Source: Patescibacteria group bacterium
GTDB lineage: Bacteria > Patescibacteriota > Minisyncoccia > Phycocordibacterales > JBBTRF01
NCBI GenBank assembly: GCA_038065315.1
Contig: JBBTRF010000001.1
Location: 528,458-592,457, forward strand
Reading direction: 5' to 3'
DNA: 64,000 nt
Made by a program: the position numbers and the translations under genes. The notes under the pieces were generated by a model. That model saw only the letters and a program-made list of their open reading frames with translations, did not search any database and was not told where the DNA came from. Shown in pieces: positions 27,958 to 39,260 of this stretch. Position 1 is the first letter of the stretch, and each line of letters opens with the position of its first letter.

Positions 27958-29088
27958 ATGACTATGAGTACTCTCAACAGAATAAGGAATGTCTTGGTAC
28001 TTGCGAGTGCATTCCTTCTACTTGCCAGCACTGTAGCCCCGATGAGTGTCTTTGCGGCTTTTGCGGGCGAAAAAGACTATGTCCTTTTGGCACCGATTCC
28101 CGGAACATACAACGAGGGAAGTTGCGCGGCAGGTACGATCAATACCTACAACGCCGGCGGCGCTTTTAGTGGCAACGGCGCGGGTACCATAAACTGCACA
28201 ACGGATTTTGTTACGTATCTCAAAGGTTTTTTCCGCCTCGTGATCTCACTTTCATCGATTATTGCCGTACTTGTGATCACCTTCGAGGGCTTCAAGTTGG
28301 CCATCTCTACGAGCGAAGGTGCTCGCGAGACGGCTAAAGAACGGATCGAACAGGCCCTTATTGGTCTCGGCCTCGTCCTTGGTTCATATCTCATTTTGAA
28401 CACGATCAATCCGCAGCTCACGAAAATTAACTTTTATGTCGACAAGATTTCCGATGCGGGACTTACCGGTTCGTCAGCTTTTCTGCAGGATGGGTTGAGT
28501 CAGGCTCTGGTAAATGAACGCGAGCAGGCGGCCTTCGCGGCACGCTCTGAAGCTTCGAGAGTTGCCAATGAGGCATTCAGCGCAGCAGTGACACCACTTC
28601 GAACAGAGCTTGCGGCACTTAAAGCAGAGTGTGAAAATGAACCAGCCGAAACAGAGGCTGAGTGTCTCTTGGGAAATGCTGGGAGAATACAAGAGTTGGA
28701 AGATCAGATTAAGGTTGCCGAAATTTCCACCGATAAGCAGGCGGCAATTAATATTATCCAGACTCTCGGCGACACACAATTCAATCAGCTGGTGAAGCCG
28801 ATCGAAAAAACCGATGACCGTTTGGCGGATATTGCCCAAATGAGAAATCTTGCAAAGCTGCAGATTGCCACGGTAAAAAATGAGACCCAAGCGCGTGTGG
28901 CAGATTTGATCGCAAAAGGGCGAGGGGAGGATGCTGCGGCGGTGCTCGCTGAATCAAATAAAGTTATTGCTGATATGAATGCCAAAATAGAGCATCGTGT
29001 ACGCTGTCCTTACTCAGACTATAACGTCCAAGCTGTTTCAGGAGGTAGTGTGGGAGGTGCCGCACCAAATATAACACCCTGTTATTAA
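27958..29088 (+). CDS. pilin-like protein with VirB2/TrbC-type topology plus coiled-coil C-terminal extension
   Basis: A signal peptide and a Cys-containing segment come first. Then two hydrophobic helices (FFRLVISLSSIIAVLVITF / ALIGLGLVLGSYLILNTI) are separated by a short polar loop, as in T4SS pilins. A long helical tail follows. Confidence 0.4.
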   Translation: MTMSTLNRIRNVLVLASAFLLLASTVAPMSVFAAFAGEKDYVLLAPIPGTYNEGSCAAGTINTYNAGGAFSGNGAGTINCTTDFVTYLKGFFRLVISLSSIIAVLVITFEGFKLAISTSEGARETAKERIEQALIGLGLVLGSYLILNTINPQLTKINFYVDKISDAGLTGSSAFLQDGLSQALVNEREQAAFAARSEASRVANEAFSAAVTPLRTELAALKAECENEPAETEAECLLGNAGRIQELEDQIKVAEISTDKQAAINIIQTLGDTQFNQLVKPIEKTDDRLADIAQMRNLAKLQIATVKNETQARVADLIAKGRGEDAAAVLAESNKVIADMNAKIEHRVRCPYSDYNVQAVSGGSVGGAAPNITPCY

Positions 29089-29089
29089 C

Positions 29090-30412
29090 ATGAAAAAAAG
29101 TACCGCATACACAATCCTAGGAATCATCATCGGTATCGTCATTGTCGCGCTGGGCGTGTTGTATTTTGTCTTTCTGAGAACACCGGGGGTGGTAGATCCT
29201 GGTCCGGACGTCAACAACGAAGGGAAGGCAGACCGAGGCGGTTTCGATGGCACGGTTGACGACACTGAGCCAGTAACTCCTGTCGAACCAAAAACTCCAA
29301 TAGCCACCACTACGGGGGAGCGACCGGAACCACCAAAACTTCGAAAGATATCGACTGGACCGATAGCTGGAGGCATTGCCTACGACACAACCATCAAAAC
29401 AGGCAAGGTGAGTGTGACGGAGACCCACATCCGCTTCATCGACCGCATCAATGGCGCGATCCACGAAACCCGTACCGACGTTTTGGACACCCAGAAGATT
29501 GCCAGTGCTTCGATTCAGAAGATTCGCGAGGCGTTTTGGGCAAAAGACGGCGCTAGTGTGTACATCCGATATGTCACCGACGCCAACCCATACACCATCG
29601 AGACATATCTCGCTAAACTCGTACCTTCGAAGACCGCGTCCTCTTCACAGGCGGCACTCCCAAGTGACATCAGCTTCCTTCCACAAGAGGTGCGCGGCAA
29701 CTATCTCACTCGCAATCTCAAAGAAGTCCTACCTTCACCATTTACCCTCGGCACTATTTTCTACACCTTGCCAAAAGGTGCGGACCTGCAAGGTATCATC
29801 TCGAGCAAGGACGATACTAAAAGGGTAGAGGTGCTCAACTCACCAATCACCGAGTGGACCAGTCAGTGGCTCGCCTCGAATTTGTTCGCCATCACCACAA
29901 AAGCCTCAACTTTCTCAGATGGCTTCCTGTACTTCCTCAACACCGACACCCAGAAGCTCGACCGCGTGCTCGGCAACATCCGTGGCCTCACCACTCTTGC
30001 GAGCGCCGACCAAAAATATGTGATCTACTCGAACTCCAGAGATGATGGCTTCACCACACGACTTTTCAATACCAAGACTGGTCTGCTCGAGCAATTCTCA
30101 TTCACCGTATTGCCGGAAAAATGTGTCTGGAGCAAGAAACAAGTCGCGGTCGTGTATTGTGCCGTACCACAGTACCTTCCAAGTGGGCTCTACCCCGACG
30201 GTTGGTATCAAGGCGTTGTCAGCTTCACCGACGATCTCTGGAGAATCGACGCTTCGACCGGCTCCACAAAGCTCCTCGCCAGTCTCGCCGCAGTCTCAAA
30301 AGAAGAAATCGACGTGATCCGACCATTCCTCGATCCGCAAGAAAAATACCTCTTCTTCACCAACAAGCGTGATGGCGCTTTCTGGAACCTACTTCTTCCG
30401 ACGAATAAATAG
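29090..30412 (+). CDS. membrane-anchored hypothetical protein (last gene of cluster)
   Basis: N-terminal TM (ILGIIIGIVIVALGVLYFVFL) and a beta-rich extracytoplasmic domain. Its 3' end overlaps the convergent yidC by 24 nt. Confidence 0.45.
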   Translation: MKKSTAYTILGIIIGIVIVALGVLYFVFLRTPGVVDPGPDVNNEGKADRGGFDGTVDDTEPVTPVEPKTPIATTTGERPEPPKLRKISTGPIAGGIAYDTTIKTGKVSVTETHIRFIDRINGAIHETRTDVLDTQKIASASIQKIREAFWAKDGASVYIRYVTDANPYTIETYLAKLVPSKTASSSQAALPSDISFLPQEVRGNYLTRNLKEVLPSPFTLGTIFYTLPKGADLQGIISSKDDTKRVEVLNSPITEWTSQWLASNLFAITTKASTFSDGFLYFLNTDTQKLDRVLGNIRGLTTLASADQKYVIYSNSRDDGFTTRLFNTKTGLLEQFSFTVLPEKCVWSKKQVAVVYCAVPQYLPSGLYPDGWYQGVVSFTDDLWRIDASTGSTKLLASLAAVSKEEIDVIRPFLDPQEKYLFFTNKRDGAFWNLLLPTNK

Positions 30413-31108: not shown

Positions 31109-31489
31109 CTAGACTAATTTCACTTTTTTGAGAAGCAGGCGAATCTCGGCCTCGATTTCAGGCAAAGGCAGCTCTTTTGCAGCCTTGGTCGCACCTCCCA
31201 CACCCTTGCCACCAGGCACTCTCACAAAGAAGGCGCCGCTAAAAGGAGCCTTTAGTGAGCCATTTTTTCGCACTTCTGCCAGCACATTCTCCAGCGCGGC
31301 GGCGAAGCGTCGCTTGATCCGATTGCGCAGCACAGCTGTGCCAGCCGCCTTCTTTGAGACTACGACGGAGCATTTCAAGGTAGGGGACGGCAAAAGACGT
31401 GCTGAAAAGGTCGCTGAGGAACAAAAAACACCCTTTCCGAGCAATTCGGGGAAGAGCGTTTTTGTGACTCGTTGAGTCTTTGGGAGCAT
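31109..31489 (-). CDS. rnpA: ribonuclease P protein component
   Basis: 126-aa basic protein with RNR motif (LRNRIKRRF). It lies between rpmH and yidC. Confidence 0.8.
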   Translation of the reverse strand: MLPKTQRVTKTLFPELLGKGVFCSSATFSARLLPSPTLKCSVVVSKKAAGTAVLRNRIKRRFAAALENVLAEVRKNGSLKAPFSGAFFVRVPGGKGVGGATKAAKELPLPEIEAEIRLLLKKVKLV

Positions 31490-31505
31490 CGAACAGGGCG
31501 TGTCT

Positions 31506-31658
31506 TTAAGCCTTTCCGCTCTTCTTCACGGAGAGCTTCTTGCGTCCCTTGAGTCGTCGTCGAGCGAGCACACGCTTGCCGCCCGAAGTTCGGCCTCGTA
31601 CGAGGAAGCCGTGGGTCTTCGCGCGCTTTCGCTTCTTTGGATGATATGTGAATGACAT
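31506..31658 (-). CDS. rpmH: 50S ribosomal protein L34
   Basis: [44 protein letters not shown]. The ATG at 31658 is preferred over the TTG at 31694. Confidence 0.85.
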
Positions 31659-31744
31659 GGGGAATAGCGTAACACAGAGTGCGAAAATGTTCAATATTTA
31701 TGAAAAGAAAAGCGACCACCCTCATCTAGAATACTGGGGTGGCC

Positions 31745-31990
31745 GCCATGGCGCGTTTGATTGTGTCTCTTCCGGCTACTCCGCCTCTGGGAATAGCTAC
31801 CCGTCTTAGCCTTGGTGTTGGCCGTTACCCCACCAACTAGCTGATAGGACGCGAACCCCTCAATGAATCTTTTGCCGCGTAGCTGATCGGCAGGTTGCTC
31901 ATTGAGTTGGTAATTCACGCATTACTCGCAACAGACCGAAGCCTGCAGAACTCTGGCGCCAAAGAAAGTATAGTCCTTTCAGCACGAATC
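31745..31990 (-). pseudogene. 16S rRNA 5'-domain-like fragment (corresponds roughly to E. coli 16S positions 50-330), co-oriented with and immediately upstream of rpmH
   Basis: Minus strand reads ...GCGAGTAATGCGTGAATTACC...GGTTCGCGTCCTATCAGCTAGTTGGTGGGGTAACGGCCAACACCAAGGCTAAGACGGGTAGC.... This matches the conserved 16S blocks GTGAGTAACGCGTGGG and GATTAGCTAGTTGGTGGGGTAACGGC-ACCAAGGCGACGATCCGTAGC, including a 23/23 match to AGCTAGTTGGTGGGGTAACGGCC. Similarity decays on both sides. The intergenic space is only about 560 nt, so this cannot be a complete gene. Confidence 0.5.
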
Positions 31991-32031
31991 AGTCAACTTT
32001 GGTTAATAAGTATGTTGAAGGTGTGTCTAGT

Positions 32032-32139
32032 AGGGGAGGAGAGATGAAATGTGAGGGACTACGGAGCGCGTCGGCGCGAGTCGGAGCGAAAAGTCAGCAG
32101 ACTTTTACGCGTGCCCTTACATTTCATCTCTCCTCCCCT
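32032..32139. repeat. 26-bp near-perfect inverted repeat (25/26) flanking a 56-nt GC-rich loop
   Basis: Arm1 AGGGGAGGAGAGATGAAATGTGAGGG at 32032-32057. Arm2 CCCTTACATTTCATCTCTCCTCCCCT at 32114-32139. The reverse complement of arm2 equals arm1 except one G/A position, which is a G-U pair if transcribed. Confidence 0.85.
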
Positions 32140-32216
32140 CTATCCACAACTTATCAACATGTTTCTCCACCCTCCACAAGTGTTGCATTTTCTCCCCAGC
32201 TTATATAATACGTTTC
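32140..32216 (+). promoter_or_regulatory. dnaA promoter region with DnaA-box-like sites
   Basis: cTATCCACA at 32140-32148 (8/9 to TTATCCACA), TTATCAACA at 32151-32159 (8/9) and TCCACAAG were seen. TATAAT at 32204-32209 lies about 12 nt before the dnaA ATG. Confidence 0.4.
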
Positions 32217-32220
32217 ACTT

Positions 32221-33567
32221 ATGGACTACAAGCAAATGTGGGATAAAGTATTGGTTGAGATTGAGCTTGCTATCTCAAAGGCTACATTCATCACTTGGTT
32301 CTCCAACACCCACATCCAAAAGATCGACGATGGCACCGTCCACCTCCATGTCCCAAACGTCTTCGCGAAAGATTGGATCAGCAACAAGTATCACAAACAG
32401 ATCCTGAAGAACCTCCGAGGGCAGAACGAGACCATCAGGGCGATGGCCTACGTCATTGCCAAAGAGGACGGCACGCGCAAGAAGGTAGAGGAGCCACCGA
32501 AGGCACCGTTTAATCCCACCACCCAACTGCCGCTCAGCGACGTTCAGATCAACAAGGACGACAACCTCAACCCGCGCTACACCTTCGACACGCTCATCGT
32601 CGGTAGCTTCAACGAACTCGCCCACGCCGCCTCACAAGCCATCATCAAGAAGCCCGGGCAGGCATACAACCCCTTCTTCATCTATGGCAACACCGGTCAC
32701 GGCAAGACCCACCTCGTGCAGTCGATAGGGAACTACATCAAAACCCACTACGCTGGGAAAAAAGTGTACTACCTCACCTCAGAAAAGTTTGGCCAGGAGT
32801 GCATCAATGCCCTTCAGACCAACAAAATGAATCTCTTCAAGGAGAAGTATCGCAAGTACGATGTCATCATCATGGATGATGTGCAATTCTTCTCCAACAA
32901 AGACAAGATCCAGGAGGAGCTTTTCCATTTGTTCAATTTCTTCTTCGACAACAACCGCCAGATCATTTTCTCGGCCGACAAGCACCCCAACTTCATCGCC
33001 AATGTCGAAGACCGCCTCCGCTCACGCTTCAGCTCAGGCATGCTGGTGGAGCTGCCATACCCGGATCTCGAGTCTCGTACAGCCATTTTGAAGGCCAAGG
33101 CATCACAGAGCGGCTTTACGCTCAATGATGAGACCGCCGAGTATCTTGCATCTTCTGTTGAGGGTAATATTCGCGAGCTTGAGGGTGCGCTCAACTCAAT
33201 CATTTGCCAGGCCCAGCTAAAAGGGAAGGACCTCAGCATGTTGGAGATCAAAAACTTGGTAAAAAACAGTGCGAAGCCAAAGAAAACGATTGCCGCGAAG
33301 GATATTATCAAAATTATCGCCGACTACTACAACATCGACGAGGCAAGCATCTACGACAAGACCCGCCGAAAGGAGGTGGTGCGCCCTCGACAGATGGTTA
33401 TGTACATTTTGCGAGAGGATTGTAGTGTCTCGTACCCTTCGATCGGCCAAAAGCTCGGCGGGCGAGACCACACGACCGTCATCCACTCGTGCGAGAAGAT
33501 CAAACACGAGATTAAGACCGACACGACCCTGATGCAGGAATTGAATCAGATTCGAGCTCTTCTTTAA
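32221..33567 (+). CDS. dnaA: chromosomal replication initiator protein DnaA
   Basis: MDYKQMWDKVLVEIELAISKATFITWF..., the AAA+ motif YNPFFIYGNTGHGKTHL, and a C-terminal DNA-binding domain (PSIGQKLGGRDHTTVIHSCEKI). Confidence 0.95.
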   Translation: MDYKQMWDKVLVEIELAISKATFITWFSNTHIQKIDDGTVHLHVPNVFAKDWISNKYHKQILKNLRGQNETIRAMAYVIAKEDGTRKKVEEPPKAPFNPTTQLPLSDVQINKDDNLNPRYTFDTLIVGSFNELAHAASQAIIKKPGQAYNPFFIYGNTGHGKTHLVQSIGNYIKTHYAGKKVYYLTSEKFGQECINALQTNKMNLFKEKYRKYDVIIMDDVQFFSNKDKIQEELFHLFNFFFDNNRQIIFSADKHPNFIANVEDRLRSRFSSGMLVELPYPDLESRTAILKAKASQSGFTLNDETAEYLASSVEGNIRELEGALNSIICQAQLKGKDLSMLEIKNLVKNSAKPKKTIAAKDIIKIIADYYNIDEASIYDKTRRKEVVRPRQMVMYILREDCSVSYPSIGQKLGGRDHTTVIHSCEKIKHEIKTDTTLMQELNQIRALL

Positions 33568-39158: not shown

Positions 39159-39260
39159 GCAAAAGTGAAATGTTTTTTGGAACTGCGGAGCGCGGCGGCG
39201 CGAGCCGGAGCAAAATCCTAGCAAGGATTTATGCGTGTCCAAAAAACATTTCACTTTTTG

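Follow-up and report, generated by a model that had tools for sequence, protein, structure and literature searches.

A candidate stand-alone small-RNA gene resembling a miniature 16S rRNA sub-domain in the rpmH-dnaA spacer of a Patescibacteria group bacterium

Positions 31996-31703 on the minus strand of the window, the 64,000-nt stretch of Patescibacteria DNA analysed here, are tentatively read as a stand-alone small-RNA gene. Its product, a mini-16S RNA, would act in trans as a decoy of a 16S rRNA sub-domain. We put this reading a little short of an even chance; both the transcription of the unit and its action as a decoy are predicted from the DNA. The unit is flanked by the minus-strand genes yidC, rnpA and rpmH and by the plus-strand genes dnaA and dnaN. 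Relatives of the host DnaA carry the labels Paceibacteria or Parcubacteria (CPR), and the contigs identical to the window are Hainich groundwater assemblies. The rpmH-dnaA spacer measures 562 nt, in agreement with the ~560 nt given in a previous sequence-only reading of this DNA, and the spacers of 79 related genomes in which it was measurable have a median of 139 nt (range 74-698). The 80 nt adjoining dnaA, with their DnaA-box-like motifs, are the only part of the spacer common to distant relatives. On the other side of the operon, two convergent ORFs of 376 and 440 aa lie downstream of yidC (window 27958-30412). The pair is syntenic in the relatives L090, L098, L100 and L110, and the 376-aa ORF has a weak T4SS_pilin (PF18895) match on the identical contigs.

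The relationship of the unit to 16S rRNA is evident in both sequence and structure. The universal 16S helix-11 string AGCTAGTTGGTGGGGTAACGGCC is matched at 23 of 23 positions at 31842-31820 (minus strand), exactly as the sequence-only reading had stated, with an expectation of 0 from 100 shuffles. The Infernal comparison with SSU rRNA proposed in that reading was run as an Rfam scan of 31450-32250 and gave a significant match to SSU_rRNA_bacteria (RF00177; gathering score 50 bits) at 31928-31773 of the minus strand (60.7 bits, E 1.2e-16; model positions 107-310). A piece resembling the 16S 5' domain is therefore present as claimed, but Infernal supports only 156 nt of the ~250 nt that had been described as 16S-like; the rest of the ~255-nt unit consists of a UUCG hairpin, a closing stem and a terminator. 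Positions 107-310 alone were matched out of the full-length RF00177 model (positions 1-1533, all domains), and with a spacer of 562 nt the earlier remark that a complete rRNA gene cannot fit here holds. In the SSU alignment, helices 7, 11 and 12 are placed with high posterior probability and nearly all helices of the window copy are intact, helix 11 having one C-C mismatch and a 2-nt bulge. The region of helices 8-10 is shrunk to ~32 nt.

No second rRNA-like piece was found in the window by Rfam scans or by blastn comparison with the rrn operon of E. coli and with three genuine 16S loci, and the same blastn comparison of the loci used in this work returned no other rRNA-like piece. The 60.7-bit SSU match is missed when the whole 64-kb window is submitted to Rfam cmscan, with the gathering or with an E-value threshold, and is reported when 801 nt are scanned. 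This miss is an artefact of the speed filters and not evidence of absence; short rRNA-like fragments can escape Rfam scans of long inputs in this way. Two other explanations of the segment were rejected. A coding role was discarded because the 75-aa ORF in the sense direction is not conserved, L095 having a frameshift and a stop. The duplication of an rrn promoter or leader, suggested in the earlier reading, fails because the match is internal to the model: homology begins at position 107 and the 16S 5' end is missing.

Around the 16S-like core, the unit has the parts expected of a small gene (Table 1). The promoter-like site agrees with the consensus at 10 of 12 positions and is the sole such site in 31400-32300. 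If the site does function as a promoter, the RNA is predicted to start near 31960, where the closing stem has its foot. The terminator-like hairpin was passed over by a terminator consensus scanner owing to its loop of more than 8 nt, and the element is 89-93% conserved in L098 and L100. As a whole, the window copy folds modestly better than shuffled sequences (z = -2.5). The UUCG hairpin may be a vestige of helix 6. Set against bacterial 16S rRNA (RF00177), the mini-16S RNA shares positions 107-310, the GAGUAA linker and helices 7, 11 (with AGCTAGTTGGTGGGGTAACGGCC) and 12. It differs in covering only ~13% of the molecule, in having a single hairpin for helices 8-10 and in missing positions ~95-106; furthermore, it has a new closing stem, a promoter-like site and terminator of its own and a location between dnaA and rpmH, and it is dispensable in sister species.

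Table 1 Features of the mini-16S unit and its surroundings (window coordinates)
Feature	Position	Strand	Details and basis
Sigma-70-type promoter-like site TTGACT-18-TATACT	31967..31996	-	TTGACT 31996-31991, TATACT 31972-31967; consensus match
Closing stem P0, 5' strand UGGCGC	31956..31961	-	Pairs with 31754-31749; minimum-free-energy fold
Hairpin GCAGGC-UUCG-GUCUGU	31931..31946	-	Directly 5' of GAGUAAU; from sequence
16S rRNA-like core, SSU positions 107-310	31773..31928	-	Infernal alignment, exact 23-mer, three-member consensus helices
GAGUAAU linker	5' part of 16S-like core, after UUCG hairpin	-	
Helix-7-like stem with new hairpin cap replacing helices 8-10	31920-31849	-	
Helix-11-like stem	31848-31800	-	
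Helix-12-like stem	31797-31775	-	Followed by A-rich linker, then closing-stem 3' strand
Closing stem P0, 3' strand GCGCCA	31749..31754	-	Fold; in tail surviving in L098 and L100
Terminator-like element	31703..31746	-	10-bp G+C-rich stem 31746-31737/31721-31712, 15-nt loop, T-run TTTTCTTTT 31711-31703
Ancestral rpmH promoter TTGAAC-17-TACGCT	31666..31694	-	TTGAAC 31694-31689, TACGCT 31671-31666; 7 nt to ATG (31658)
rpmH (ribosomal protein L34, 50 aa)	31506..31658	-	Then rnpA 31489-31109, yidC 31099-30389; Pfam families on identical contigs
Long inverted-repeat element, left neighbour of the unit, outside the RNA gene	32022..32148	.	Genus-specific structured repeat family
Conserved dnaA upstream region with DnaA-box-like TGTGGATA/TTATCAACA motifs	32140..32220	+	Comparison with relatives

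Two further units of the same architecture were found in other genomes. A metagenome pattern scan for GAGTAAYRCGTG and AGCTNGTTGGTRRGGTAA 50-80 nt apart, a gap constraint that pre-selects a short helix 8-10 region, brought up L095, a true analogue; its other six hits were real 16S genes. A second analogue, L112 (GCA_964674995.1), was reached via a close relative of the PemK-like neighbour of L095. The L095 unit matches the SSU model with 56.6 bits, above the gathering score and with the same boundaries (107-310), and has a fold of -120.5 kcal/mol (z = -7.9). L112 aligns to positions 108-309 with 22.5 bits only, and its fold has a z of -4.5. As for the six real 16S genes (L091-L094, L096 and L097), they belong to another lineage and have an expanded variable helix-6 insertion; GGAGTAATACGTG in their helix 8 is the sequence that matched the first anchor of the pattern.

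All three members share a promoter-like site just before the closing stem, the stem differing in sequence and not in position, as well as a UUCG hairpin in the same place with different stems. They have in common GAGUAA, a single hairpin replacing helices 8-10 and, just after the unit, a hairpin and T-run terminator. Two DNA motifs that deviate from the Rfam consensus, CGTGAATTACCAA and GAGGG(G)TTC, are likewise common to all three and correspond to the helix-7 strands CGUGAAUUACCAA and GAGGG(G)UUC. Helix 11 is near-invariant among the three, and helix 12 keeps its pairing through changes. The mini-16S family was defined from these three members by the closing stem, the UUCG hairpin, GAGUAA, CGUGAAUUACCAA, a capped helix 7, helices 11 and 12 and the terminator, all of which the window copy possesses. 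L095 and L112 are close relatives and count as one independent context, making two contexts in all with the window.

Comparing L095 with L112, the core segments of the RNA are 93-97% identical and the third codon positions of pemK 82-84%. These sequence identities argue moderately for purifying selection on the RNA core, the other non-coding flanks being ~90% identical too. Meanwhile, the helix-7 cap is unalignable between the two, the tip of helix 11 differs by a 53-nt insertion and the tip of helix 12 by a 20-nt hairpin. Functional structured RNAs usually show this pattern of a conserved junction and freely varying hairpins at the periphery. The 53-nt insertion (L112 3770-3822) contains AGTGGCGAACG, which we take to match in full the conserved 16S sequence immediately before GAGTAA (~E. 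coli 95-105) that is otherwise missing in the minis; a second piece of 16S origin may have been rearranged into this place, or the match may be due to chance.

Searches beyond these three added no member. A three-member nhmmer profile run against all 113 loci and the window found no further copy. Six scans of viral contigs gave zero hits or one false positive (L113, in a coding region of a small Rep/capsid-type virus), and blastn against plasmids and phages detected only helices 11-12 of real 16S genes.

Among the relatives of the host, neither nhmmer nor blastn detected any similarity to the element in 80 species-representative dnaA loci or in L088, L089 and L090, whose DnaA proteins are 70-79% identical to that of the host. 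Remnants are found in sister lineages of the window (RnpA 85-87% identical; 85% for the L100 lineage). L109 has the inverted-repeat element followed by the rpmH promoter, the unit being wholly deleted. In L098 and L099, the inverted repeat runs straight into a tail made up of AATCAAACGCGC, the 3' strand of the closing stem and the terminator (89% identical to the window). In L100, L101 and L103, the second half of helix 12, TCCCAGAGGCGGA, is joined to the 3' half of the inverted-repeat core, and the tail and terminator come next, at 93% identity to window 31792-31703. The inverted-repeat element formed one end of the deletion by which the L100 lineage lost the unit. Given that the tail holds the closing strand and the terminator, the sister states are best read as deletions from an ancestor with the complete unit. 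On this reading, the unit predates the splits of the sister species and was lost two or three times. We also considered the L100 arrangement, an inverted-repeat core with half of helix 12, as the ancestral state and rejected it, since the second window copy of the repeat and the copies in L098 and L109 continue into the right arm.

Given these repeated losses, the unit can be dispensed with, and an accessory role is favoured over a housekeeping one. Its deletion more than once in sister lineages, together with a patchy distribution, marks the mini-16S unit as an accessory, dispensable element. The deletion pattern also fits relaxed selection, which brings in the most serious rival, namely a relic without function: 16S rDNA sequence, or a mini-16S gene that functioned in the past, would have been captured in the variable spacer and would now be drifting and undergoing deletion, the window copy being the last intact one. 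We judge this possible while doubting it. Absence from the 83 more distant relatives and partial or whole deletion in three sister lineages are what a relic would leave, the weak fold z-score of -2.5 and the mismatch and bulge in helix 11 point the same way, and the dnaA-rpmH spacer has proved a hotspot for deletions and palindromic insertions. As with rRNA pseudogenes in general, this is a short piece of rRNA outside an rrn operon that has been lost in relatives. However, its helices are almost all intact, and a closed domain with a promoter-like site at the foot of its closing stem and a terminator right after it would not be expected from random capture. Homologous copies exist elsewhere, in unrelated contexts, that are strongly structured and have the same 16S boundaries and the same internal replacement. 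Moreover, the unit predates the split from the L100 lineage and is yet intact in the window. The decayed rrn remnant proposed in the sequence-only reading stays a live rival, although it explains neither the closed architecture nor the homologous copies.

Other structured sequences share the spacer. Between the mini-16S terminator and the rpmH promoter, L098 (2132-2290) and L100 (121-250) carry a different palindromic insert of ~130-160 nt, which has CCTCATACTTTTGTATGA at its centre and G-rich and C-rich outer arms that differ between the lineages; the window has none. Copies of the inverted-repeat family were located in the window (32022-32148 and 39160-39258), L098 (1944-2062), L109 (832-948) and L100 (1-30). 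They combine a ~24-bp outer stem, which differs in sequence between copies, with a conserved core of two inner hairpins, AAAAGUC-UGCU-GACUUUU and GCGC-CGAC-GCGC (GGCC-CGAC-GGCC in L100). Compensatory double changes occur in 21 of the 44 predicted pairs, as counted from only four sequences. One window copy is upstream of dnaA and the other between convergent genes. Rfam gave no match to the family other than spurious miRNA-hairpin hits, and the repeat could be an RNA or a REP/MITE-like element.

The sequence-only reading had described the 16S-like piece as embedded in the rpmH leader. Its orientation is that of rpmH (minus strand), as stated there, but the unit has its own promoter-like site and terminator, and the conserved rpmH promoter lies downstream of that terminator. 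Since the promoter-like site and the terminator precede an intact rpmH promoter, we regard the rRNA-like unit as separate from the rpmH leader. The same promoter-to-ATG layout is found upstream of rpmH in L088, L089, L090, L008 and L010, and the promoter stretch is identical at 50 of 50 nt in the sister-lineage loci L098-L104 (96% in L105). Species without a single difference in this 50-nt region (100% identity) have RnpA proteins of only 85-87% identity. In rpmH of these Paceibacteria, the -10 hexamer lies only 7-8 nt before the ATG, without a Shine-Dalgarno sequence, which implies a leaderless mRNA.

A cis-acting role would require transcription from 31996-31967 to run into rpmH-rnpA-yidC, with the binding of a ribosomal protein to the mimic controlling the terminator at 31746-31703. 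The location of the unit directly upstream of rpmH and in its orientation, with a terminator between mimic and gene, would suit such an attenuator. So would CGCC-AU-GGCG at 31753-31744, which from its sequence could form an alternative hairpin competing with both the closing stem and the terminator stem. We nevertheless find this improbable, as rpmH retains its highly conserved, apparently leaderless promoter after the terminator, relatives do without the element (median spacer 139 nt), and L34 binds 23S rRNA and not 16S. In addition, the L095 and L112 units are followed by a PemK-like gene, and in both of them the closing stem has no overlap with the terminator.

The related suggestion of a regulatory rRNA mimic for a ribosomal-protein operon fares no better. 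Ribosomal-protein leaders, such as those for S15, S8/spc, L1, L20, S4 and S6:S18, are short motifs in the 5' UTR of the binder's own operon that are conserved with the operon and have little extended identity to rRNA (PMC3616713, PMC3895269, PMC7247131). The mini-16S RNA is like them in imitating an rRNA site outside the ribosome, and the window copy does lie upstream of a ribosomal-protein gene. In contrast to a 5' UTR that leads into its operon without an intervening terminator and promoter, it is followed by the terminator at 31746-31703 and the promoter at 31694-31666. It is not conserved with rpmH, being absent upstream of this gene in 83 more distant relatives and deleted in sister lineages. 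The operon consists of rpmH (L34, a protein of the 50S subunit), rnpA and yidC, and the mimicked site lies in 16S, whose helix 11 is bound by S17 (PMC4604426). It also differs in its 150 nt of homology at the sequence level and in having its own terminator, and the other members precede the PemK-like gene and are not beside ribosomal-protein genes.

In L095 and L112, the gene order is promoter, mini-16S RNA, terminator and PemK-like gene. The last encodes a PemK/MazF-family protein of 123 aa (PF02452, 26.7 bits; L095 1063-1434, L112 4001-4372). At every occurrence, its gene comes after the mini-16S RNA and is followed by a ZIP transporter gene in convergent orientation, and no ORF for a protein antitoxin was found near it in either locus. 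Its 90%-identity cluster has six sequences only, one per contig, and a word-indexed protein search with the PemK-like neighbour returned nothing beyond this cluster. Searches of PDB, NCBIfam and PADLOC with the protein gave no match, and a single-sequence AlphaFold model was unusable (pLDDT 39).

This neighbourhood raises the alternative that the RNA is an antitoxin or immunity decoy of a MazF/PemK-type RNase targeting 16S rRNA, similar to type III systems, with the window copy as an orphan antitoxin. The type III toxin-antitoxin systems ToxIN, CptIN and TenpIN pair an RNA of tandem repeats with a ToxN/AbiQ toxin. The L095 and L112 loci resemble them in their succession of promoter, structured RNA, terminator and endoribonuclease-family gene with no protein antitoxin, and frequent loss and a patchy distribution are typical of such accessory modules. 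Unlike the RNA of those systems, the mini-16S RNA is not a tandem-repeat array: Tandem Repeats Finder found none in the unit, its only hit being a 10-nt repeat of 2.8 copies inside the core of the adjoining inverted repeat. The neighbour belongs by Pfam to PemK/MazF and not to ToxN/AbiQ. While L095 and L112 have the PF02452 gene directly downstream of the RNA, the window has no endoribonuclease toxin gene in that place and no PemK-like sequence at all (best tblastn E = 0.5). Further weighing against this alternative, the linkage is one independent observation (two genomes, 92% amino acid identity), and the protein lacks matches in PDB, NCBIfam and PADLOC as well as a usable model. We give the antitoxin alternative little weight.

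A metagenome assembly chimera, with the chromosome misjoined to a 16S gene, had been listed in the sequence-only reading and is contradicted by several lines of evidence. Coverage is low (2-5x by contig names), and three assemblies end within the segment, at window positions 31820, 31823 and 31900. However, four independent assemblies from different Hainich samples (L084, L085, L086 and L107) are 100% identical to the window over the whole spacer, and the breaks sit at universal helix-11 k-mers. Two contigs of one Logan run, L081 (ending at 31823) and L106 (beginning at 31852), share an overlap of k-1 = 30 nt that falls exactly on the universal helix-11 sequence. Contigs break here because helix-11 k-mers are shared with the real 16S genes of the community. 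Furthermore, the segment is not contiguous 16S: parts are deleted internally, sequence other than rRNA sets in within 40 nt on either side, and a deletion derivative of it occurs in another species from another study (L100-L103). A chimera is accordingly so improbable that we set it aside.

Equally improbable is a trans-supplied piece of a fragmented 16S rRNA, whose main gene would be without positions 107-310: separately transcribed rRNA pieces do occur in some organelles (PMC3382252) and CPR rRNA genes are unusual, with insertions and one copy per genome (PMC9297842, PMC11270868), but this fragment is self-closed by a new stem, is without helices 8-10 and has been deleted by sister lineages. 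CPR bacteria normally have one rRNA copy in which helices 6, 10 and 17 are reduced, and their rRNA genes frequently contain insertions (PMC9297842, PMC11270868). Such reduction and insertions may explain part of the truncation of the mini-16S unit and offer a possible source of the fragment.

Returning to the small-RNA gene, we propose the following mechanism. Transcription would start from the sigma-70-type promoter at the foot of the closing stem, and the resulting RNA of ~255 nt would fold into the UUCG hairpin and a miniature of the 16S 5'-domain junction of helices 7, 11 and 12. One hairpin would stand in for helices 8-10, the junction core being kept and the helix tips freely swapped within the family. 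The hairpin and U-run would then end the RNA just upstream of the intact rpmH promoter. Acting in trans, the mini-16S RNA would mimic the 16S sub-domain for a protein that normally recognises it. Candidate ligands are uS17, a helix-11 binder, or an rRNA-directed nuclease, for instance the PemK/MazF-like protein encoded beside the L095 and L112 units. S17 contacts helix 11, S20 contacts helices 6, 8, 9 and 10, S16 the pocket of helices 7, 15 and 17, and S4 the 3/4/16/17/18 junction (PMC4604426). By retaining a closed helix 7/11/12 sub-domain, the mini RNA keeps the S17 site and drops the other sites.

More broadly, the family may represent an undescribed class of stand-alone small RNAs, self-closed helix 7-11-12 minis that CPR-type genomes would carry as accessory genes and that would serve as decoys for an rRNA-recognising protein. 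We advance this class as a speculative proposal, with considerable doubt. In one version, the RNA would be an antitoxin or immunity factor against a MazF/PemK-like RNase attacking the 30S body; in another, it would be a sponge for uS17.

Decoy RNA mimics are established in bacteria, 6S RNA imitating open promoters and CsrB the binding sites of CsrA. By analogy, the logic proposed here would be the same, in that a protein would meet a stable small RNA that copies its natural nucleic-acid ligand. To our knowledge, rRNA mimicry occurs only as short motifs in ribosomal-protein mRNA leaders, and we know of no bacterial small RNA that imitates a whole rRNA folding domain. In the literature searched on rRNA-like small RNAs and rRNA fragments, we met no account of a small RNA that is a stand-alone rRNA domain. 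The mini-16S unit would extend the known principle of rRNA mimicry, and it would be categorically new if the decoy function holds.

The finding bears on genome reconstruction as well as on biology. Mini-16S pieces break metagenome assemblies at this locus and can seed false partial-16S calls in CPR bins. If the unit is a relic only, it documents the capture of an rRNA fragment and its subsequent erosion by microhomology-type deletions beside genes of the replication origin. If the decoy reading is true, the mini-16S RNA would give cells or selfish elements a new means of titrating a nuclease or a protein that binds the ribosome, and the helix 7/11/12 junction, which nucleates part of 30S assembly, would have a natural minimal model.
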